A DNA stretch of 49,403 nucleotides, taken from the IMG/VR virus record IMGVR_UViG_3300045988_091734, positions 1-49,403 of that record, one strand, 5' to 3'. The DNA comes from a virus. The notes beneath the pieces were generated by a model. That model was not told the DNA's origin. It ran no database searches and saw only the letters and a list, made by a program, of their open reading frames with translations. The translations under genes and the position numbers were made by a program. This document shows, piece after piece, positions 3,608 to 49,312 of this stretch (the first letter of the stretch is position 1; every line of letters begins with the position of its first letter).

Positions 3608-3636
3608 TTGACAAGTTGCACAACTTGTGATATAAT
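3608..3636 (+). promoter_or_regulatory. P1: exact consensus promoter with class-A palindromic operator in the spacer
   Basis: TTGACAagttgcacaacttgtgaTATAAT. The palindrome ACAAGTTG-ca-CAACTTGT (3611-3628) spans the -35 and spacer. Confidence 0.8.
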
Positions 3637-3642
3637 AATTAG

Positions 3643-3693
3643 TGTCAAGGGGGAGGTACAAAATAAAACTCCGGACAGAAAGAGGTAACGAGT
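3643..3693 (+). promoter_or_regulatory. structured 5' leader copy 1 (hairpin + GACAGAAAGAGG RBS)
   Basis: GTCaagggGGAG-GTACAAAATAAAA-CTCCgGAC hairpin (3643-3675), then ACAGAAAGAGGTAAcgagtATG. Confidence 0.6.
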
Positions 3694-4191
3694 ATGGCAC
3701 GAGCAATCGCGGAATGCACCTGCGCCAAGTGTGGCGCGAAATTCGAGAAAGTCCAGTTCCGTTCCAACCGCAAGATGGCGGACGAATGGAAGGCGTGGGC
3801 GGAAGAGAACTGCACCACCTGCCCCGATTGCTGGGCAAAGGTGAAGCAGGAGAAGGACGCTGCGAAGGCGGAGGCTCTAATTGAAGAACTGCATCTCCCA
3901 GAAATCGTCGGAAAATCGGCGAAGCAAGTCAGGTACGCAGATGACTTGCGGAACAAATACATTGTGAGATCTGCTGAATATATTCGCTTCATGCACAATT
4001 GCCTCTGTGATGAGCAATTCAAAGGGCGGAAACAATGCGAGGCAGAAGCCAAAAAAGAAGGGCTGTCCGTCTCAGAATGGATAGAGCAAAGGGCGAACAG
4101 CACGCCATATGATTATGAAAATCATGCGGCATGGACTGTGCTGCATAGCAGCGAAGCGCGAAAAATCATTGACGCGCTGACGAGCTACTAA
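3694..4191 (+). CDS. zinc-ribbon hypothetical protein (first gene of the P1 operon)
   Basis: ATG lies 8 nt after AGAGG of leader 1. Has CAKCG...CTTCPDC cysteine pairs at the N-terminus. Confidence 0.7.
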   Translation: MARAIAECTCAKCGAKFEKVQFRSNRKMADEWKAWAEENCTTCPDCWAKVKQEKDAAKAEALIEELHLPEIVGKSAKQVRYADDLRNKYIVRSAEYIRFMHNCLCDEQFKGRKQCEAEAKKEGLSVSEWIEQRANSTPYDYENHAAWTVLHSSEARKIIDALTSY

Positions 4192-5491: not shown

Positions 5492-5520
5492 TTGACAAGT
5501 TGCGCAACCTGTGCTATAAT
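5492..5520 (+). promoter_or_regulatory. P2: exact consensus promoter with class-A operator (one mismatch)
   Basis: TTGACAagttgcgcaacctgtgcTATAAT with palindrome ACAAGTTGC/GCAACcTGT. Confidence 0.8.
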
Positions 5521-5527
5521 AAATCAT

Positions 5528-5579
5528 GTCAGGATGGTGGTACAAAACAAAAACCCCCCGACAGAAAGAGGTAAGAATT
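5528..5579 (+). promoter_or_regulatory. structured 5' leader copy 2
   Basis: GTCaggatGGTGG-TACAAAACAAAAA-CCCCCcGAC hairpin (5528-5562), then ACAGAAAGAGGTAAgaattATG. Confidence 0.6.
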
Positions 5580-5849
5580 ATGAAGTTGACTGATGGCAAG
5601 CGCACGGTTGAGATTGAGATGCTGACGTGGGACGATAACAAGGAGCGGTATATCGGTAGTGACTACGCTCCCTACTTCTTCGACGGGTGCGAAGGCACGG
5701 ACGCGATGCAAGTGGAAGATGTTGACTACTGCATCGGTCAGGCGGAAGACTGGGAGAGGTTCCGTGGGGACTTCTTGGATGATGAGGCTGCAGAAGGTGA
5801 AGAGCGCGTTGTGCGCGTGACGGAGATTGCAGAGGACAAGGAGCATTAA
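5580..5849 (+). CDS. small, strongly acidic hypothetical protein (about 30% D+E)
   Basis: ATG lies 8 nt after AGAGG of leader 2. 89 aa with 27 D/E by hand count, so a DNA-mimic-like composition. Confidence 0.7.
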   Translation: MKLTDGKRTVEIEMLTWDDNKERYIGSDYAPYFFDGCEGTDAMQVEDVDYCIGQAEDWERFRGDFLDDEAAEGEERVVRVTEIAEDKEH

Positions 5850-5916: not shown

Positions 5917-7746
5917 TTGGAAAAAAACAGCATTTGGACGATTCAAGCGCCTAACGGCACAATATACCGCACAAATCAATTGCGCAAGTTTATGTTTGCG
6001 CATCCAGAATGGTTTGCAAAGCCCGCTACTCAATATGTGACGGCATACAACTTTTTGCAAAAAAAAGAACCGGGAAAACGGCTGTGTACATTCGCAGGTG
6101 GTTGGGTTGTATTATCTAATACTTTCCGCCATGATGATATGGCGCAGTCCATCCATTGGTGGAGAATAAAGTCACCCGATGGCAAGGAACATCTTGTCAT
6201 CGGCGAACGGTATCGACATTTTTTGCAAACATGTGGTTATTTTGAAGTTGGAAGTGAACCATATTATTATTTTAAGTGCGGCTTAAAAAAAGCAAGCGAA
6301 GAAGGAACGCCTGTTACTCTAAAAAATGGATGGATAATCGCGCGTCCTGTCCCGCTCGACGAGTTTCGGCTGGTTGATATTGTAGGACCGGAAATGGAGC
6401 AGGAGTATATCTACGACGCAAACGGAAATTCGCACCCCAAACGCCTTAGCGATGTCCGAAACTACAAACGCGGACAAATTGAGTGGACAATTGCTGACCC
6501 GGACGGCAGAATATACCACACAAAAAGCCTATTTAATTTTTTGCGAGAGCGGAAGGATTTTTCCGAGAACCCACGGTCGGCTGTGGCAATGTTTTCGCAA
6601 ATAATTGCTATACGTTGCGGGTTGAGAAACGGGAAGAAATTAACGTTAAAGAACGGTTGGACTGCGTTAGACCGTTCCGACGTACATGATTTGATTGAGC
6701 AAAGGAAGCAAAACTATCAGGAAAGTGCAACAAACAAGCCGATAGAGCGAAAACACAGAGACTTGACGGGTCAAAGATTTGGGATGCTGACTGCTCTTTA
6801 TCGGCTTGACGGGAAAGGGAAGGCGAAGTGGCGTTGCCGTTGTGATTGCGGAATTGAGAGAGATGTTTTGAGCGACACCCTGATTCGCGGACACAGAACC
6901 AGTTGCGGATGCCGTGGAAGCAAAGACTTGACCAATCAACGTTTTGGCTCTTTGATAGCCCTATACCGAATTACTGGGAACGGCAAGGCAAAATGGCACT
7001 GCCGATGCGATTGTGGCAATGAAAAAGATGTTTTTGGGGAAGACCTCCTTCGCGGAAATACAACGAGTTGTGGATTCTGCAAATACGACGATTTGACTGG
7101 TCAACGTTTCGGTGCATTGACCGTTCTTTCCCGCGTCGAAGGGGAAGAGCGTACAATGTGGCATTGTCGCTGTGACTGCGGCAACGAAAAAGACATATTA
7201 GCCGGCAACTTGCGGAGCGGGCTTGTTACGAGCTGCGGGTGCGGAAGAAACAGAATCGCTGCTCGAACGGAAAGCCTTGCAGTCACACCGCAAGCGTCAT
7301 TTAACGACATCGCCGGGAAACGTTTTGGAATGTTAACTGCTATCCGCTACGACAGGCAAAAACGTCGTTGGCTTTGCCGATGCGATTGCGGAGGCGAGTG
7401 CTACTTAAATTGCGCAGAGCTTAAAACACGCCGTGATTGCGGCTGTTCTGCTGCGCAGGCAGCGGCAGAACGAATAAAAGCTGGCGCAAACGGAAATCGC
7501 CTCGGCACAAACATCAACACCATCACCAATATTATGAGCGGAAAATTACGAAAAACTAACACTTCCGGCATCACTGGCGTATCAATCAAGGGCAATTGCT
7601 ATCGAGCCAGAATTGTCGTGCGTGGGCGCGAAATAAATTTAGGCAAATTTACCACATTAGAAGCTGCCGTCCGCGCAAGAAAAGAAGCAGAAAAGAAGTA
7701 TTTCGCTCCGCTCATCGAGCAAGACAAGGAAAACCAAAAGGAGTAA
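5917..7746 (+). CDS. multi-repeat DNA-binding protein: 3 N-terminal repeats, 4 zinc-ribbon repeats, C-terminal AP2 domain
   Basis: Three W.I..PDG..Y...F...KNGW units. Four DLTGQRFG.LT......W.C.CDCG......L..G...SCGC units (nt ~6760-7450). C-terminal NTSGITGVS...YRARI..RGREINLGKF.TLEAAVRARKEAEKKYF matches the AP2/integrase-type DNA-binding domain. The TTG start is uncertain. Confidence 0.7.
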   Translation: MEKNSIWTIQAPNGTIYRTNQLRKFMFAHPEWFAKPATQYVTAYNFLQKKEPGKRLCTFAGGWVVLSNTFRHDDMAQSIHWWRIKSPDGKEHLVIGERYRHFLQTCGYFEVGSEPYYYFKCGLKKASEEGTPVTLKNGWIIARPVPLDEFRLVDIVGPEMEQEYIYDANGNSHPKRLSDVRNYKRGQIEWTIADPDGRIYHTKSLFNFLRERKDFSENPRSAVAMFSQIIAIRCGLRNGKKLTLKNGWTALDRSDVHDLIEQRKQNYQESATNKPIERKHRDLTGQRFGMLTALYRLDGKGKAKWRCRCDCGIERDVLSDTLIRGHRTSCGCRGSKDLTNQRFGSLIALYRITGNGKAKWHCRCDCGNEKDVFGEDLLRGNTTSCGFCKYDDLTGQRFGALTVLSRVEGEERTMWHCRCDCGNEKDILAGNLRSGLVTSCGCGRNRIAARTESLAVTPQASFNDIAGKRFGMLTAIRYDRQKRRWLCRCDCGGECYLNCAELKTRRDCGCSAAQAAAERIKAGANGNRLGTNINTITNIMSGKLRKTNTSGITGVSIKGNCYRARIVVRGREINLGKFTTLEAAVRARKEAEKKYFAPLIEQDKENQKE

Positions 7747-7754
7747 GCAATAAA

Positions 7755-8348
7755 ATGCCAGAAGAGCACAAAGAACAGCTCATTTCGCAAACAACCGTTT
7801 TGTCTATGGGCTTCACTAAGTCCCTGATAGACAAGCTGCTTCCGCCGCCCATCCTTAAGCGGAATCCGCATTATGCGTCCTCATCTCCCATGAAACTGTG
7901 GCGCGATGACGATGTGCGTGCCATCATGGAGACGCCGGAGTTCCAAACGATGGCGGCGAAAGCAGCCGCACGGAAAGCGGCTGCTGCAAAAGCCGTCGAA
8001 ACGAAACGCAAGAACGCTGAAGGCATTGCCGATAATCTCATTGCATCCATCCACGTTACGCGCTGGGATATTCCCGTGTTGGAAGAGGCGACGCTGAACG
8101 CAAAGCAAGAATGGTTTCTCGAACACGGCAATGTGGATATGGCGACCCCAAACACCGAGACGCTGGAACGCTGGATGGTCAATTTTGTCCGCCATAATCT
8201 CTGCGAGTATGACGACAAGTTGATTGACCTTTTCGGGCTTATCGGCAAGGAAGCGCTGTACCAGCGCCTAAAAACTGAAACACTTGCGAAAATCGCGGAA
8301 GTATATCCAGAACTTGAAGTTGAGTGCAAGCGTCAGGCGCAAGTGTAG
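7755..8348 (+). CDS. hypothetical protein
   Basis: ATG 7755 follows AAGGAG, so the track start 7596 is judged over-extended. 197 aa, followed by a terminator. Confidence 0.6.
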   Translation: MPEEHKEQLISQTTVLSMGFTKSLIDKLLPPPILKRNPHYASSSPMKLWRDDDVRAIMETPEFQTMAAKAAARKAAAAKAVETKRKNAEGIADNLIASIHVTRWDIPVLEEATLNAKQEWFLEHGNVDMATPNTETLERWMVNFVRHNLCEYDDKLIDLFGLIGKEALYQRLKTETLAKIAEVYPELEVECKRQAQV

Positions 8349-8363
8349 AGCGCAACTAAAAAA

Positions 8364-8392
8364 GACCGGGACATTACGTCCCGGCTTTCTTT
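8364..8392. terminator. bidirectional rho-independent terminator between convergent genes
   Basis: CCGGGAC-attac-GTCCCGG stem flanked by an A run upstream and TTTCTTT downstream, so either orientation gives hairpin + U tract. Confidence 0.7.
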
Positions 8393-8625
8393 ATATTCCG
8401 TTTGGGTAAAATTTCGGAGTATTTCTGCGCTTCGTCGTACTTGATTTTGAGCGTATGTATAATATAGTCAATCTTGCGAATGCTCATATTGTACTTTATC
8501 GACTGCTTTGTGCGTGTCCAGCCCTTCGCCCGCGACCTGATAATCAGTTCTTCTTCCTCGGACAAACAGGCTTCGTCAACGAAAGCATCCACAACCGCTT
8601 TTGTCCATACGACTTCGCGGCTCAT
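8374..8625 (-). CDS. small sigma-70 region-4/LuxR-like HTH protein
   Basis: LSEEEELIIRSRAKGWTRTKQSIKYNMSIRKIDYIIHTLKIKY resembles a region-4-type HTH; last gene of the lysis operon. Confidence 0.5.
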   Translation of the reverse strand: MSREVVWTKAVVDAFVDEACLSEEEELIIRSRAKGWTRTKQSIKYNMSIRKIDYIIHTLKIKYDEAQKYSEILPKRNIKKAGT

Positions 8626-8628
8626 CCC

Positions 8629-8907
8629 TTACTCCTTCGGTGCGTTCTTGCCCTTTTCGTCCACAATTTCGATGGCTTTCAGCACATCTGCACCGTTAAT
8701 GTTGGTGACGCCGCCCGCGCTCGCCGCGTCCGTCATGCCCTCGCCGATGATGTAGGCGATGACCGTAGCACCCGCCATGATGATGCTGCCGACCTGCGTT
8801 GCGGTTTCATCCGCCACGCCGAATGCCATAATCAGCATGGTCACAAAGGACACAACCGCCGCCCAGAACTTGCGGCTTGTCAGTTTACGCTTCAAATTCT
8901 CACTCAT
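8629..8907 (-). CDS. holin (two transmembrane segments)
   Basis: 92 aa. TM segments FWAAVVSFVTMLIMAFGV and VGSIIMAGATVIAYIIG. ATGA overlap with the upstream gene; two genes downstream of the endolysin. Confidence 0.7.
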   Translation of the reverse strand: MSENLKRKLTSRKFWAAVVSFVTMLIMAFGVADETATQVGSIIMAGATVIAYIIGEGMTDAASAGGVTNINGADVLKAIEIVDEKGKNAPKE

Positions 8908-29667: not shown

Positions 29668-29847
29668 TTACTTCACGATGACGGTTTCCCAGTCGGTGAG
29701 GACTGCGGTAGTCCCGAAGCAGTCGTTGGCGATGCGCTTGTACTCTCCAGTCCACGCGTCGCGGGTGTAAGTCCAGTTGCGGGTGGTGTACTCCATGTTG
29801 CGGTTGAGGGTTTCCAGCGCCTTGGTGCTCAGCTTGATGGTCTTCAT
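29668..29847 (-). CDS. small hypothetical protein (first gene after cassette 3)
   Basis: The second ATG (29847) lies 8 nt after AGAGG, matching the spacing in cassettes 1 and 2; 59 aa. Confidence 0.65.
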   Translation of the reverse strand: MKTIKLSTKALETLNRNMEYTTRNWTYTRDAWTGEYKRIANDCFGTTAVLTDWETVIVK

Positions 29848-29897
29848 ACTCATTACCTCTTTCTGTCGGGGGCTTTATTTTGTACCGCCCTCCTGAC
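29848..29897 (-). promoter_or_regulatory. structured 5' leader copy 3
   Basis: Minus strand GTCaggaGGGC-GGTACAAAATAAA-GCCCccGAC (29865-29897), then ACAGAAAGAGGTAAtgagtATG. Confidence 0.6.
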
Positions 29898-29903
29898 ACT
29901 ATT

Positions 29904-29932
29904 ATTATAGCATATACTGCTGTATATGTCAA
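29904..29932 (-). promoter_or_regulatory. P3: exact consensus promoter with class-B palindromic operator
   Basis: TTGACAtatacagcagtatatgcTATAAT with palindrome CATATAC-agca-GTATATG. Confidence 0.8.
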
Positions 29933-30465: not shown

Positions 30466-31274
30466 CTTACCCTCCTATCCGTGGATTCCTCAACTTTCTT
30501 GGGCATTTGCCAAATGATTTGCGGAGACTTAAACCAACCGTCATGGTAAAACAAAGTGCCGTTATAGTAGCGCAGGGAATAGCCCGGACGGAATGTCCAC
30601 GCGTTCAGAAGGAATGCGACTTCATCATGGTACTCCGCAGGAATCCTATCGAGCATTGATAATGTATCCACGGCAATATCACACTGGAAAAGACACTCCT
30701 TTTCCTTGATACGGCACGCAATCATGTACCGCGCTTCAACAAGCGCCTCTTCACGCGTCTTGAACACCTTCCGCTCGCAAACAGAGGAGCCGCCAATCCC
30801 CATGTTCCACTGCGGAACAGAACGCACAAGCCGATAAGAAGTCTTGTTTACTTCAACATCAACTCTCACCTCTGCGTCATGATTCGGAATGAGCCAACCA
30901 CGCTTCATGCACGCCATCAGGGTTTCTGATTCAGAAGCGTTCTGTTCGTGCTGTACTTTCACAAACGTATTGAACGCATCGTACTCTTCTTGACAAAACT
31001 GCTTGCGTTTTCCGTACAACTTATCGTAGTCACGATAGGATTCAACAACCCCTTTGGGAATCTTTTTCCACGATTCGTCCGAATGAAACGCACACGCTCG
31101 AACGCCATCGTAAAGGGTAAAGTCCCACAAAGTGTACTTTTCGCCTCGCCAATTGCCGTGCTCATCTTGATATGTAAACAGAGCGAAATGTGCAAGTGGC
31201 GTGAATGTCTGACTGACACGAGCATCTTCCATCTCATAGATAGCAGCCGGGTAAAAACCAAAGAAAGCATCCAT
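30462..31274 (-). CDS. hypothetical protein (gene driven by cassette 4)
   Basis: ATG 31274 lies 9 nt after AGGAGG; 270 aa; no motif recognised. Confidence 0.65.
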   Translation of the reverse strand: MDAFFGFYPAAIYEMEDARVSQTFTPLAHFALFTYQDEHGNWRGEKYTLWDFTLYDGVRACAFHSDESWKKIPKGVVESYRDYDKLYGKRKQFCQEEYDAFNTFVKVQHEQNASESETLMACMKRGWLIPNHDAEVRVDVEVNKTSYRLVRSVPQWNMGIGGSSVCERKVFKTREEALVEARYMIACRIKEKECLFQCDIAVDTLSMLDRIPAEYHDEVAFLLNAWTFRPGYSLRYYNGTLFYHDGWFKSPQIIWQMPKKVEESTDRRVR

Positions 31275-31412
31275 CAAGCAAGACCTCCTTTGCGAATGAA
31301 ATACGGGCAGATAAATCCATCCGAACCAGTGCTTTCATCCGCCCAATATCTGGTTTGTGAGGTTTTCCTTCCTCTTTCTGTCCGGGGTTCTTTTTTTGTA
31401 CCTCCCCTTGAC
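31275..31412 (-). promoter_or_regulatory. structured 5' leader copy 4 (long version)
   Basis: Minus strand GTCaaGGGG-aGGTACAAAAAAAgaa-CCCCgGAC (31380-31412), then ACAGAAAGAGGAAGG and ~95 further nt before the AGGAGG RBS. Confidence 0.55.
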
Positions 31413-31418
31413 ACTATT

Positions 31419-31447
31419 ATTATAGCATATACTGCTATATATGTCAA
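31419..31447 (-). promoter_or_regulatory. P4: exact consensus promoter with class-B operator (one mismatch)
   Basis: TTGACAtatatagcagtatatgcTATAAT. Confidence 0.8.
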
Positions 31448-40612: not shown

Positions 40613-41128
40613 TCACCCCTTCTGCACCGCGAAAACCGGGTCGCGCGGAATAATCTTGATTCCGGGAACGACTTCGCCCGTCAACTCATCAATCGCCTGT
40701 CCGTTGTTCTCCGTAATCAGCCCTTTCAGCGCCGTCCATTTCAGTTTCGGCACGTTCTCAACGCAGGACGGCGCATTCTCGGCACACCACGCGATAATCT
40801 GCGCATCGTCGCGCTCGTACTCCGGCGCTTGCGCCTTGCGAACCAGAACGCCGCTCGGCAGCTTGTACTTCTCGCTGGTCTTTGTCGCCTTGTGCGGAAC
40901 GGTTTCGAAGTAGCTTTCCAGCAGCGCTGTGAAGTAGTCAATGCTCTGCTGGTTGGACTGCGCCACGCGCTCGCTCTGCGCCTTGTAGTAGTCCTTCCAT
41001 TTCTGCGTATCGGCTTCCAGCTCCGCGATACGGCGAACCGCCCAGTCTGCCTTCTGGTCGTTGTCGATGACAAACCCCGCGCGTTCTTCCTGCTCGTTTT
41101 CCTCGATTTCGTCAATGAACTGCTCCAT
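40613..41128 (-). CDS. Mu Gam-like host-nuclease inhibitor protein
   Basis: FVIDNDQKADWAVRRIAELEADTQKWKDYYKAQ...KYKLPSGVLVRK fits the Gam-like family as recalled. ATG 41128 follows GAAAGGAAG. An in-frame GTG at 41182 is an alternative start. Confidence 0.6.
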   Translation of the reverse strand: MEQFIDEIEENEQEERAGFVIDNDQKADWAVRRIAELEADTQKWKDYYKAQSERVAQSNQQSIDYFTALLESYFETVPHKATKTSEKYKLPSGVLVRKAQAPEYERDDAQIIAWCAENAPSCVENVPKLKWTALKGLITENNGQAIDELTGEVVPGIKIIPRDPVFAVQKG

Positions 41129-41133
41129 ATATG

Positions 41134-41162
41134 TTGACTTCCTTTCGTTTTTGTGGTAGAAT
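41134..41162 (+). promoter_or_regulatory. P10: strong near-consensus promoter on the plus strand (TTGACT-17-TGgTAGAAT)
   Basis: TTGACTtcctttcgtttttgTGgTAGAAT faces away from gam; the CATATATG box abuts the -35. Confidence 0.65.
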
Positions 41163-41168
41163 GGCAGT

Positions 41169-41239
41169 GGCTTAACCGCCACATTACCCTTTCTGTCTGC
41201 TCGTGATGCGCTTTGTACCCGCGTCACGGGCGCTTTTTT
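41169..41239 (+). ncRNA. candidate ~70-nt antisense RNA complementary to the gam leader and to the conserved blocks of the four cassette leaders
   Basis: Downstream of P10 there is no RBS or ORF. ATTACCCTTTCTGTC lies at 41183-41197. The 9-bp stem CGTGATGCG/CGCGTCACG has loop CTTTGTACC (41211-41219) and is followed by T6 at 41234-41239. Confidence 0.5.
41183..41228 (-). promoter_or_regulatory. structured 5' leader copy 5 (no consensus promoter) upstream of gam
   Basis: Minus strand CGTGACGCG-GGTACAAAG-CGCATCACG, then gagcaGACAGAAAGGGTAAT. The loop and RBS block are shared with cassettes 1-4. Confidence 0.5.
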
Positions 41240-41522
41240 ATGCCCTTCTCCGGGCGATTGTTCCGTCAGGATTCATCAGCCCGCGCGCTACAAGGTCATT
41301 GCGCTTCTTGCGCTGGCGGATGACCTCGTTCTCCTGCTCCTGCGTCGGATAACGCTTGCGCCGCTCCAGCTCCTGCTCAAAGTCGCTGACCGTGACGCGG
41401 ATGGTTTCGTGCGCCTTGCCGCCGATGCAGATGTGCGGCATTTCGCGCATAAATTTCCGGGCGCTCTCCTTGCTGATGCAGAGGATTTCGGCGACGCGCT
41501 CCGTGTTAAGGTATTGCGTCAT
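41238..41522 (-). CDS. excisionase/MerR-like HTH (HTH_17-type) protein
   Basis: ATG 41522 (ATGA overlap). MTQYLNTERVAEILCISKESARKFMREMPHICIGG. Confidence 0.5.
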   Translation of the reverse strand: MTQYLNTERVAEILCISKESARKFMREMPHICIGGKAHETIRVTVSDFEQELERRKRYPTQEQENEVIRQRKKRNDLVARGLMNPDGTIARRRA

Positions 41523-42319: not shown

Positions 42320-42662
42320 TTTGATTAGCCTCCCTCAATTGCTTTGTTTTGGCAAGCAACTTGTCCATCGCGCTCTCATACGCTCTGTAAACGGCGTTCG
42401 CGTTGTAGTAGCGGTCTTTCCATTCGTCCCCGACGCTGCACCGCTGGAACATTTCCTTGTGCTTTTCTTTCTGCCCAACTCGCGTACTGTACACGATTTC
42501 GTTCCAGACGCGGCTTGCAAAACTTTTGCTGTCGCATACCATGTCAAGATTGCGGATGATTTCGGTTGCATTGCGAAGCAACACATCGTTGACCATGTTC
42601 GCTTCCCAGATTGCCGCCCGCGCCTCTGCGTTTGGCACGACCTTTTCCGGAATAACAAGCAT
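42312..42662 (-). CDS. hypothetical protein
   Basis: 116 aa ORF in the early operon. Confidence 0.55.
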   Translation of the reverse strand: MLVIPEKVVPNAEARAAIWEANMVNDVLLRNATEIIRNLDMVCDSKSFASRVWNEIVYSTRVGQKEKHKEMFQRCSVGDEWKDRYYNANAVYRAYESAMDKLLAKTKQLREANQND

Positions 42663-42679
42663 TACCCTTTTTCCCCCCC

Positions 42680-42973: not shown

Positions 42974-43014
42974 TGTGATACCCCTTTCTATCTTTGCGCT
43001 TTTCGCGCTGTTAG

Positions 43015-43709: not shown

Positions 43710-43738
43710 ATTATACATCAACTTTGCGTTGATGTCAA
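43710..43738 (-). promoter_or_regulatory. P5: exact consensus early promoter with palindromic operator in the spacer
   Basis: TTGACAtcaacgcaaagttgatgTATAAT with palindrome CATCAAC-N5-GTTGATG (43716-43734). An extra CATCAAC half-site lies at 43671-43677. Confidence 0.8.
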
Positions 43739-47464: not shown

Positions 47465-47682
47465 GTTTCTGCACCATTTCCGCGAAGTCACGAAAATGGT
47501 CTGTTGCGAAATTATCATCTGCGCGAATCCACGAAGATGACCATGCTGTGGATGTCCGCAAAATGGTGCTCAAAAAAAGACCGCCGCCACCACCGCAAAA
47601 AAATCGCGTCAGCGCATTTTTTTCTTTGTTGTTTTCTTTTTTTATTTTATTTTTATTCCTTTTATTTCTTTTCTTTTTATAC

Positions 47683-47751
47683 ATAGCTCAGCTATTTATT
47701 TTTTTAGCTTAGCTATTTTATTTTTAGCTCAGCTATTTATTTTTTAGCTGA
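47683..47751. repeat. array of (A)TAGCT(C/T)AGCTA(T) palindromes at 20-21-bp phasing in an AT-rich island
   Basis: ATAGCTCAGCTAT 47683-47695, TAGCTTAGCTA 47705-47715, TAGCTCAGCTA 47725-47735, half-site TAGCTGA 47745-47751, each followed by a T-rich tract. Confidence 0.9.
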
Positions 47752-47899
47752 TTTACTTTTAAAGATGGTGCAAAGCCTTGAAATCACTGCATTTCAGGCG
47801 TTTTCGCAAATTAAAATCACCATCCGTGTCTGACCTTTCTTGACCTTTAAGACGAAAAATGTTACAAGATTATTACGGAGCAAAACTGCAAAAATAAAA

Positions 47900-47912
47900 A
47901 TAGCTTAGCTAT
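47900..47912. repeat. fifth ATAGCTTAGCTAT palindrome
   Basis: Exact 13-bp palindrome 10 nt downstream of the stop of CDS 47922..48086. Confidence 0.85.
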
Positions 47913-47921
47913 TCGCTTTTT

Positions 47922-48086
47922 TTATTTTTCTTCGTATTTTCTAATTTTGTGTGTTTTGCAGCTCATTTTCTCTGCAAAAATTTTCCTTCCCAGCCACGCG
48001 AGAAATTTCGCTTGCAGGTCATCCGGCAGTTTCTCCACCTTCTCGACAATCATTTTAACAACAAACTTTTTATCAAAATCAGTCAT
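47922..48086 (-). CDS. small hypothetical protein in the AT-rich island, divergent from int
   Basis: ATG 48086 lies 7 nt after GGAG. MTDFDKKFVVKMIVEKVEKLPDDLQAKFLAWLGRKIFAEKMSCKTHKIRKYEEK. Composition is much more AT-rich than the rest of the genome. Confidence 0.5.
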   Translation of the reverse strand: MTDFDKKFVVKMIVEKVEKLPDDLQAKFLAWLGRKIFAEKMSCKTHKIRKYEEK

Positions 48087-48262: not shown

Positions 48263-49312
48263 TTGCCACGCCAGACACTTAAAAAGCGCCCCGACGGGCG
48301 TTATGTTTGCAAATATAAAGGCTTTTCGTTCTACGGGCGAACGCAGTCCGAAGCCCTTGCCGCCCGTGAAGAGTACAAGAAACAGGAAAAATACGGCAGG
48401 AAACCACGGGAAAAGTACACGTTCGCGGAGTACGCAGCGGAGTGGCTGCCGACTTACAAGAGCGAGGTGACCATAAATGTATATGATGCGTATGTCTCAC
48501 GCCTTAACCAGATAGCATCAATCCTGCCGCAAACAGAGATGCGACTAATCACTCCGTCGGATATACAGCGACTTTATAACGCTTTTTCCGACCGCGGAGA
48601 AGGGACGCGAAGGAAGATAGCCGAAGCAACGAGAGCGGTTTTTCGCGCTGCCAAGAATGATGGAATAGTTGCAATTTCTCCCTGCGAGAACGTTAGGCGG
48701 AAGAAGGGGGCAGTAGGGACGCACCGTAATCTTGATGATTGGGAAATAAAGCTAATCAGAGACACTTGTGAAAGCGAAAGAATGGGAATTTACGCGATGG
48801 TGATGTTGTATGCAGGACTTAGGCGCGGAGAAGCGCTTGCGCTCGATATTGATGATGATGTTGATTTTGAGAAAGGTGTGATTCACGTCCGAAAGGCGAT
48901 TCGACGCGAACGTTCCGACTATATTATCACTGTACCAAAGACAAAAGCTGGTATTCGTGACGTGCCGCTGTTTCCGCCGTTACTGGATGTTTTGCAAGGG
49001 CGACACGGAAGCGTTATAATATCGAAAGATAACAAAATTATTTCTTTCAGCGCTGTGACCGATGCGTGGAAGCGTTACCAAAATCATCTATCAAAAATTG
49101 CGGGGAGAAATGTGGCAATCAGGCAGCACGATTGCAGACATACTTTTGCGACGATGCTCTATGATGCGGATGTTGACATTAAAACTGCCGCGCGCTGGAT
49201 GGGGCATGAGGATGAGACGATGATAATGCGGATATACGCACATCTCACGGAAAAAAAGGAAGAAAACGCCATCAGAAGGGTCGAAAGTATGTTGACTTCT
49301 ACGCCCAAGTAG
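48263..49312 (+). CDS. int: tyrosine recombinase / phage integrase
   Basis: TTG 48263 lies 8 nt after AAAGGAG. Catalytic-type motifs LYAGLRRGEALAL, RQHDCRHTFAT, WMGHED...MRIYAHL. Confidence 0.9.
   Translation: MPRQTLKKRPDGRYVCKYKGFSFYGRTQSEALAAREEYKKQEKYGRKPREKYTFAEYAAEWLPTYKSEVTINVYDAYVSRLNQIASILPQTEMRLITPSDIQRLYNAFSDRGEGTRRKIAEATRAVFRAAKNDGIVAISPCENVRRKKGAVGTHRNLDDWEIKLIRDTCESERMGIYAMVMLYAGLRRGEALALDIDDDVDFEKGVIHVRKAIRRERSDYIITVPKTKAGIRDVPLFPPLLDVLQGRHGSVIISKDNKIISFSAVTDAWKRYQNHLSKIAGRNVAIRQHDCRHTFATMLYDADVDIKTAARWMGHEDETMIMRIYAHLTEKKEENAIRRVESMLTSTPK

Follow-up and report, generated by a model that had tools for sequence, protein, structure and literature searches.

Features of the gam leader

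The DNA considered here, called the window below, comprises positions 1–49,403 (in nucleotides, nt) of the IMG/VR virus record IMGVR_UViG_3300045988_091734, and the element under study is a predicted gene for a small antisense RNA on its plus strand, at positions 41134–41239. The window is a temperate siphophage-like genome (~53% G+C), with an integrase-like gene at its right end and a repressor/Cro-type switch at ~43.7 kb. A long early operon, read on the minus strand, starts at a perfect promoter (43738–43710). In this operon, gam (40613–41128, minus strand) encodes a Mu Gam-like protein of 171 amino acids (aa; Pfam PF07352, E = 6.5e-15), and a gene for an ERF recombinase lies beyond it. The early gene upstream of gam (41238–41522, minus strand) encodes 94 aa without a family hit. 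The gap between these two genes is 109 nt, and the small RNA unit fills it on the opposite strand. The same 94-aa gene and a gap of ~110 nt ahead of gam are present in L230–L233 (labels of this kind designate the lineages or contigs compared with the window).

The gam start at 41128 is confirmed by relatives, in which the in-frame extension upstream is broken; an N-terminal extension from the in-frame GTG at 41182 or 41227 was rejected, with a frameshift or a stop there in relatives. The Shine–Dalgarno (SD) sequence of gam is GAAAGGAAG, inside the spacer of the small RNA promoter. Between the early promoter at 43738 and the small RNA locus, there is no convincing minus-strand terminator.

The promoter of the unit consists of the −35 hexamer TTGACT (41134–41139), opposite the region between the SD and the ATG of gam, a 17-nt spacer, and the extended −10 element TGgTAGAAT (41154–41162, with TG at 41154–41155 and TAGAAT at 41157–41162). 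It scores 10/12 plus the TG and is found where the original prediction, a note made from the sequence of the window, had placed it. Promoter-like sites that score 10/12 or more and are followed by a terminator within 130 nt number only two in the whole window, this one and that of a known Rfam RNA (260–338). Transcription would start at about 41167–41170. The predicted RNA opens with a 5′-terminal hairpin, GTGGC-TTAACC-GCCAC (41167–41182), followed by an unpaired, C/U-rich anti-SD stretch of 16 nt, AUUACCCUUUCUGUCU (41183–41198), called the seed below. The terminator hairpin (41199–41231) carries a 9-nt loop, CUUUGUACC (41211–41219), and after a GC comes a run of six Ts (41234–41239) that overlaps the stop codon of the upstream minus-strand gene. 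The T-run and a 9-base-pair (bp) core of the stem had been recognized before, but the stem is longer than the 9 bp then given, with 12 bp between 41199–41210 and 41220–41231. Two of its pairs (41201/41229 and 41207/41223) are G·U in the plus-strand RNA and C·A mismatches in the minus-strand RNA.

For the 71-nt RNA (41169–41239), the folding energy is −25 kcal/mol (z = −4.15 vs. shuffles), and both the 16-nt stretch and the 9-nt loop have a predicted unpaired probability above 0.9. The sense-strand RNA of the locus also forms two hairpins. One could therefore imagine a locus without any small RNA, where a sense-strand intercistronic element of the early mRNA (a processing or stabilizer element, or one of the nut/put kind) is accompanied by fortuitous plus-strand signals. 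The sense fold, however, reaches a z of only −1.85, and, with the conservation described below, we regard this explanation as improbable. Within it, an antitermination site of the nut/put kind is not favored, being 2.5 kb from the early promoter and having a stem that is mismatched in the sense RNA.

As previously stated, no ribosome-binding site (RBS) or open reading frame (ORF) follows the promoter. The lone plus-strand ORF, from a GTG at 41203, was rejected: it has no SD, reads through the terminator, and is not conserved (its ATG is lost in relatives). The gap holds no conserved small ORF for a type I toxin. Among Rfam families, none matches the small RNA (the best score, 16.2 bits against a threshold of 102 for Esr41, E = 2, is noise). 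No published description of such an RNA was found in the literature searched, in agreement with the earlier statement that no system of this kind was known to be described in this phage lineage.

The predicted RNA covers the mRNA from the stop codon of the 94-aa gene to ~25–30 nt upstream of the gam SD. It is perfectly complementary to the gam intercistronic leader, ~40–110 nt upstream of the gam start codon. Neither the RBS nor the coding sequence of gam is overlapped, and of the upstream gene the stop codon alone is covered. Since the gam SD and start codon are outside the RNA, a direct translational block of gam is not expected, and any regulation of gam would have to be indirect, by cleavage, by interference, or by masking of a standby site.

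Conservation within the clade

Close relatives of the window were found neither among deposited phages nor among GTDB representative genomes (searched by protein and DNA pattern). Phages of gut Clostridia have the terminases closest to that of the window, with identities of no more than 55%. Conservation was studied in 53 relatives with a Gam 80–98% identical to that of the window, which represent 47 distinct haplotypes, with four-fold degenerate sites of both flanking genes as neutral proxy (nucleotide diversity, π, of 0.16–0.17).

The whole gap has a π of 0.052. The conserved block spans 41166 to the end of the T-run and so matches the predicted RNA. Its exposed parts, the unpaired stretch (π = 0.003) and the terminator loop (π = 0.005), show the strongest conservation of all non-coding bases in the region, whereas the stems drift (π = 0.04–0.06). 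The 5′ hairpin has a π of 0.017, and the T-run a π of 0, with a length of 6–9 and always at least six Ts.

In the promoter, TTGACT, the TG, and positions 1, 2, 4, and 6 of the −10 element are unchanged in the 47 haplotypes. Variation in the −10 region is found at positions 3 (G/T) and 5 (A/C), at position −13, and in the discriminator (41163–41165). The spacer drifts in sequence (π = 0.13) but has 17 nt in all haplotypes, and insertions or deletions occur just outside the promoter, never within it. The −10/discriminator segment as a whole has a near-neutral diversity (π = 0.16), and the −35 hexamer lies in the translation initiation region (TIR) of gam, where gam initiation possibly constrains it; both points would suit fortuitous plus-strand signals in a sense-strand element. 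Yet, within that near-neutral segment, exactly the TG and the T-A-x-A-x-T are invariant, and the A-run ahead of the hairpin on the sense strand, which is useless in the sense RNA, is always present.

The hairpin with its T-run may also be read as an insulator against stray antisense transcription into the immunity-proximal genes, or as a site acting at the DNA level, the promoter-like sequence being weak or inactive. Intrinsic terminators facing operons do occur, and no ORF or other plus-strand gene is nearby. But there is no plus-strand promoter upstream except the one 40 nt away, and no non-coding sequence of the region is better conserved than the stretch from promoter to terminator, a constraint that an insulator does not need; we hold this explanation to be very improbable.

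In the terminator stem, one pair varies between U–A, U·G, C–G, and A–U, and two others are mostly U·G (in 11–13 of 14 sequences) and otherwise C–G. The exchanges between U·G, C–G, and U–A maintain a pair only in the plus-strand RNA. Eight of the 11 stem variants are more stable by 2.4–6.4 kcal/mol as plus-strand RNA; in the leader hairpins described below, taken as control, the difference between the strands is only ~0.5 kcal/mol. The hairpin is thus oriented with the plus-strand promoter, as the original prediction had it.

Analogous units in divergent gam lineages

Gam homologs 34–63% identical to that of the window were located, and their contigs scanned upstream of gam. In eight further lineages, an antisense promoter occurs at the gam initiation region and a terminator adjoins the upstream stop codon, with 50–75 nt between them. 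The promoters are TTGACT-17-TGcTACACT in L239 and in L234, TTGACT-17-TGtTATTCT in L236, TTGCGT-17-TGgTATAAT in L230, TTGTAA-17-TGaTATACT in L235, TTGATA-17-TGgTATAAT in L238/L253, TTGTAT-17-TGtTACAAT in L225, and TTGACT-17-TGaTATGCT in L244. The RNA bodies are largely unrelated in sequence across the eight lineages. In most of them, a 5′ hairpin is present at or within a few nucleotides of the predicted 5′ end. Loops like that of the window are found on unrelated stems in L239 (CUUGUACC) and L234 (CUUGUCC).

The 17-nt spacing and the TGn are common to all nine lineages (the window clade and the eight others), which are otherwise unrelated in sequence at this place, and this is hard to reconcile with fortuitous plus-strand signals. 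The position of the −35 hexamer with respect to the gam ATG shifts, from 6 nt upstream in the window to upstream of the SD in L234 and to an overlap with the ATG in L236. Because the hexamer moves with respect to the ATG while its distance to the −10 element stays at 17 nt, selection appears to keep the geometry of the promoter and not that of the TIR. The terminator stems of seven lineages (all but L244) have each at least one G·U pair that is a C·A mismatch in the sense RNA; such antisense-oriented wobbles, present in the window clade and in all seven lineages with stems examined, again speak against a mere sense-strand element. So does the frequency of the units. A background scan in which identical criteria were applied to the two strands of these loci (626 kb) gave 0.0037 units per 100 nt, or ~0.12 expected in the 21 gam-upstream intervals, where 8–9 were observed (an enrichment of ~70-fold).

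Together, the conservation in the clade and the eight lineages strongly support, at the level of sequence, the predicted ~70-nt RNA antisense to the gam leader as an independent plus-strand unit. On these two grounds, we consider that the small RNA gene at 41134–41239 is very probably real.

Promoter–leader cassettes and their complementarity to the RNA

In the window, GGTACAAA occurs six times (0.88 expected) and GACAGAAAGNGGTAA, with up to two mismatches, five times (0.31 expected). GGTACAAA and GACAGAAAG(A)GGTAA occur together five times: in four promoter–leader cassettes, c1–c4, and on the minus strand of the small RNA locus, a fifth copy that has no sense promoter. The original prediction had counted five leaders. 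Four of them are indeed cassettes, paralogous to each other; the fifth is the antisense partner of the RNA itself, and the five do not amount to independent observations.

Cassettes c1–c4 follow one plan, with an A-rich upstream region (and, in c3 and c4, also a terminator ahead), a perfect TTGACA-17-TATAAT promoter with a palindrome in its spacer, a 5′ hairpin with a large loop starting with GGUACAAAA, and an SD-containing block. Cassette c1 (3608–3693, plus strand, perfect promoter) has the loop GGTACAAA at 3655–3662 and the block GACAGAAAGAGGTAA at 3674–3688, before the ATG at 3694. In c2 (5492–5579, plus strand, perfect promoter), the loop is at 5539–5546, the block at 5560–5574, and the ATG at 5580. 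In c3 (29848–29932, minus strand), preceded by an intrinsic terminator, the promoter is at 29932–29904, the loop at 29886–29879, the block at 29867–29853, and the ATG at 29847. In c4 (31368–31447, minus strand), the promoter is at 31447–31419, the loop at 31402–31395, and the block, GACAGAAAGAGGAAG, at 31382–31368. The sequence described earlier as the RBS block of leaders 1–4 is common to the four, but in c4 no start codon follows the block at the spacing of an RBS, and the 270-aa gene, which has a AAAGGAGG of its own, begins only at 31274, ~95 nt beyond it. Since the c4 block is not used as RBS of the main gene, it is kept for something other than initiating that gene.

In the IMG/VR loci of relatives, more than 60 distinct cassettes have the two-part motif in the right order and context. 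A motif-independent search gave 67 cassettes, with one substitution in the loop 8-mer in four and one in the block in three, so that the strict invariance formerly attributed to the leader loops does not hold. As to the joint conservation of leaders and unit, also raised in the original prediction, leaders without the RNA unit are found only on contigs of <36 kb, i.e., partial genomes, and no informatively long contig has the leaders but lacks the unit.

The seed complements GACAGAAAG(A)GGUAA of the c1–c4 leaders, with duplexes of −18.7 to −23.9 kcal/mol. Much as described before, its part AUUACCCUUUCUGUC forms with the SD block of c1–c3 a helix of 9 bp, a 1-nt bulge, and a second helix, of 5–7 bp; the best match is that of c3, with 7 bp after the bulge. 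The RNA loop UUUGUACC pairs with the leader-loop sequence GGUACAAA at about −10 kcal/mol. The leader loops, the blocks, and the loop and seed of the RNA are all predicted to be unpaired.

Of the 62 TIRs of the window, 4 have a complement of at least 9 nt to the seed, against 0.23 for shuffled seeds (P about 0.001). Two early genes on the minus strand are candidate extra targets. In the first (42662–42312), AAAGGGTAATG (42660–42670) comprises the start codon (42662–42660) and the 8 nt upstream, and is an 11-nt perfect complement of the seed. In the second (42973–42680), GATAGAAAGGGGTAT (42978–42992) is at the RBS, with a small hairpin ahead. In L230 and L253, exposed segments of the respective RNAs have 10–11-nt matches to TIRs.

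In L234 (Gam 49% identical), two leader copies are found on the opposite operon, each with a hairpin GGCUG-GGACA(A/U)G-CAGCC followed by an SD region. The loop CUUGUCC of the L234 small RNA is complementary to the loop of this hairpin, and the unpaired stretch of the same RNA matches the SD region, in part through wobble pairs. L234 thus shows the loop–leader geometry of the window with a co-varied loop. One of the two copies is in a cassette on the minus strand (8292–8722) with a terminator, an A/T-rich stretch, the promoter TTGCGT-17-TGaTACAAT, and the leader GGCUG-GGACAUG-CAGCC with its SD; the second is one gene downstream of this cassette. The design is like that of c1–c4, an indication that the leader family predates the clade of the window.

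As to the genes behind the cassettes, the c2 operon encodes a protein of 609 aa (5917–7746, plus strand) with matches to HNH endonucleases (phrog_374, E = 1e-71). The PHROG search gave no hit for the other first cassette genes or for the rest of the c1 and c2 operons.

The cassette promoters are among nine perfect 12/12 sigma-70 promoters in the 49 kb, at 3608 and 5492 on the plus strand and at 29932, 31447, 43738, 45879, 46878, 47402, and 373 on the minus strand. The 17-nt spacers of several of them hold palindromes that resemble operators with different specificities: ACAAGTTG-N2-CAACTTGT in c1 and c2, CATATAC-N4-GTATATG in c3 and c4, and ACATCAAC-N5-GTTGATGT in the early promoter. Further spacer types occur on the same cassette scaffold in relatives.

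Proposed action of the RNA

Provided that the RNA is made, its pairing with the gam leader in cis is highly probable. The promoter would be of a constitutive-looking, extended −10 type that overlaps the ribosome-binding region of gam. The duplex formed on the gam leader could be subject to cleavage of the RNase III type or bring about the decay of the gam–erf part of the mRNA, and the strong early promoter and the convergent small RNA promoter would interfere mutually; both effects follow established examples, OOP and cII (PMC12197685) and convergent promoters. The outcome would be a low level of gam and of the downstream recombination genes while early transcription is weak or leaky, for example in a lysogen, on the assumption that Gam, a DNA-end-binding protein, is harmful if mis-expressed. 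Across lineages, it is the position antisense to the gam leader, and not the sequence, that is kept, and this speaks for action in cis as the main task of the RNA.

In trans, a loop–loop contact with the cassette leaders would be followed by occlusion of the SD, as the original prediction proposed, and, once the phage is induced, the early mRNA, in which the site is present in perfect form, would titrate the RNA away. An RNA acting only in cis needs no conserved unpaired parts, yet these are its most conserved ones, which favors action in trans. Exposed segments that are invariant while the stems vary, the co-varied pair of L234, and the matches to non-paralogous TIRs make it plausible. For the cassette leaders of the window, we see trans regulation as an evenly balanced question.

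The same observations can be accommodated by an RNA whose action is confined to cis, on the gam leader and through promoter interference, the shared motif being due to common descent and to a function on the sense strand. Such a function could be that of a 5′ stabilizer hairpin with an SD-like ribosome-binding, standby, or STAB-SD site, or the binding of a shared RNA-binding protein. The constancy of position noted above fits this explanation, and in the window as well as in L234 the sense strand of the unit is leader-like, with a hairpin ahead of an SD-like block. Set against the 3′ end of 16S rRNA, the block AGAAAG(A)GG looks like an extended SD, and the retention of the c4 block implies a role other than ordinary initiation. 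A stabilizer, on the other hand, would not demand a conserved loop sequence; the U·G pairs of the hairpin are C·A in the sense RNA, so that it looks tuned for the antisense strand; and the non-paralogous TIRs at 42662 and 42973, like TIRs of L230 and L253, match exposed parts of the respective RNAs. We take action in cis only to be possible but doubtful.

Several observations weigh against an RNA that acts both on gam and on the cassettes. With respect to the RNA gene, the sense strand gives the slightly better fold for 3 of the 11 stem variants. No unit is present in L227 and L237, where gam abuts the preceding gene; of 12 further gam lineages, 11 lack a unit there by the criteria used; and neither gap nor unit is present in the Faecalibacterium phage FP_Lagaffe, which alone among cultured relatives has a Gam homolog. 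In addition, L034 (IMGVR_UViG_3300045988_045207, 1–127, at a contig end) keeps the antisense promoter and gam but has the RNA body and terminator replaced by unrelated sequence with another GC hairpin, the junction being right after the predicted start; this arrangement could be a mosaic allele or an assembly artifact.

With respect to the targets, the element upstream of gam is homologous to the leaders (hairpin and SD-like block), in the window as in L234, and its antisense is therefore automatically complementary to all leaders; the pairing of exposed parts with exposed parts follows as well. A function of the shared motif on the sense strand would equally explain the invariance and the co-variation. 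Cassettes c1–c4 are paralogs and count, therefore, as one observation, and the cassettes with a single substitution in loop or block exist without a compensating change in the RNA. The L234 7-mer is common in L234 coding regions through codon usage. In an exact k-mer search, isolated complementarities of 9–11 nt to the RNA are at chance level in 49 kb, and the match at 42660–42670 is a single 11-mer, near chance level genome-wide. Duplex energies, which the original prediction had suggested comparing with shuffled controls, are modest for the full-length RNA (RNAduplex, z from −1.4 to −3.2), and in a two-part energy scan of the window and of L234, GC-rich coding windows score as well as the leaders, a result that also agrees with action in cis only.

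With single matches at chance level, significance rests on the ordered two-part match and on conservation. As energies discriminate poorly, the assessment was built on matches that are exact or bulged, on their structural context, and on conservation. For a two-part match in the right order, spacing, and context, we arrive at a chance expectation in the region of 1e-4, as a rough estimate.

Our reading is, thus, that of an RNA of ~70 nt that opposes the early operon and would act in cis on the gam leader and in trans on the cassettes; we give it a probability of roughly 0.5. A farther-reaching version can be advanced only tentatively: a single antisense RNA may silence every promoter–leader cassette by loop–loop contact and SD occlusion, with the early mRNA as a decoy that times the release. 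It would govern four operons or more in the window and as many as six or more in relatives, and the cassettes of incoming relatives would probably be silenced too. RNA loop and leader loops would then co-evolve between lineages, GGUACAAA/UUUGUACC here and GGACAAG/CUUGUCC in L234.

Other small RNA units and features

A second small RNA unit is found at 218–373 on the minus strand. It has a perfect TTGACA-17-TATAAT promoter (373–345), a match to the Rfam family RF02967, DUF3800-VII RNA (260–338; 48.7 bits vs. a threshold of 36.2), which is the sole hit of the Rfam search over the whole window, and a strong terminator (~259–219); it folds at −53 kcal/mol (z = −4.4). The name of this family was not found in the literature searched. 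The background scan returned further units of promoter plus terminator, 55–100 nt in length, at L227 +4322, L253 +5027, L241 −4177, L246 −2030, and L243 −9051; some are inside early regions, and more small RNAs may be encoded there.

No tRNA or tmRNA genes were found in the window. To the left of the integrase-like gene (48263–49312), an AT-rich region (47630–47950) contains several repeats centered on TAGCT(C/T)AGCTA and could be attachment-site or origin-like.

Comparison with known antisense RNAs

The OOP RNA of lambda, 77 nt long and made from the pO promoter, is antisense to the cII–O junction and works through a duplex that RNase III cleaves (PMC12197685). The predicted RNA of the window is like OOP a short phage RNA with its own promoter and intrinsic terminator, opposes an early operon, and extends over a gene junction into the 3′ end of the gene upstream. 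There is no relationship in sequence or host; the stop codon of the upstream gene alone is overlapped, and the target is the gam leader instead of cII. The strong conservation of the exposed parts and their match to other leaders are also not known for OOP.

In the c4 RNA of P1 and P7, two short exposed segments pair with two sites just upstream of the RBS (PMC12197685). Two short exposed segments would, likewise, face repeated sites near the SD in the window, as in c4 and in the CI RNA of P4. The pairing of c4 or of the P4 CI RNA shuts off translation or transcription downstream, and the pairing sites are repeated in the phage. Those RNAs are processed from the transcript of their target and act on one operon, whereas the RNA of the window would have its own convergent promoter and sites on at least four transcription units.

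The sar RNA of P22, an antisense RNA of ~69 nt, has its promoter inside the early/immunity leader and opposes a strong promoter (PMC12197685). The predicted RNA is of similar size, also has its promoter within a leader region, and likewise faces a strong promoter. Unlike sar, which covers the RBS of ant, it ends ~25–30 nt short of the gam SD.

C/U-rich exposed motifs, as in the unpaired stretch and the terminator loop, are shared with the anti-SD RNAs of Firmicutes. In RsaE/RoxS, the LhrC family, and the hairpins of RNAIII, C/U-rich motifs (CCCUUU, UCCC, CUCC) pair with SD regions, and A/U sites of the Hfq type are not needed. Those RNAs are chromosomal and serve a host regulon, while the RNA of the window is phage-encoded, without sequence similarity to them or a Rfam hit. 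Loop–loop (U-turn) contact followed by the pairing of adjacent single strands is known from CopA/CopT, from RNA I/RNA II of pAD1 par, and from IstR-1/tisB; IstR-1 pairs far upstream of the RBS it regulates. These systems concern replication or type I toxins, and neither a toxin ORF nor a replication function is evident here.

To our knowledge, almost all known phage antisense regulators (OOP, sar, c4) come from phages of Enterobacteria. The present RNA family would be an undescribed one, from uncultured temperate phages of the gut Clostridia type, and its link to the Mu-like gam/ERF module would offer a simple explanation for the silencing of a potentially harmful DNA-end-binding protein. Nine lineages with the same architecture and different sequences make it a test case for the origin and upkeep of antisense regulators, and, if the RNA does act in trans, it shows how a set of operons can come under the control of an RNA transcribed antisense to a single copy of a repeated leader. 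The RNA would stand apart from the known antisense RNAs by its association with the gam leader, by recurring in nine lineages under different sequences, and by a possible regulon of several operons.

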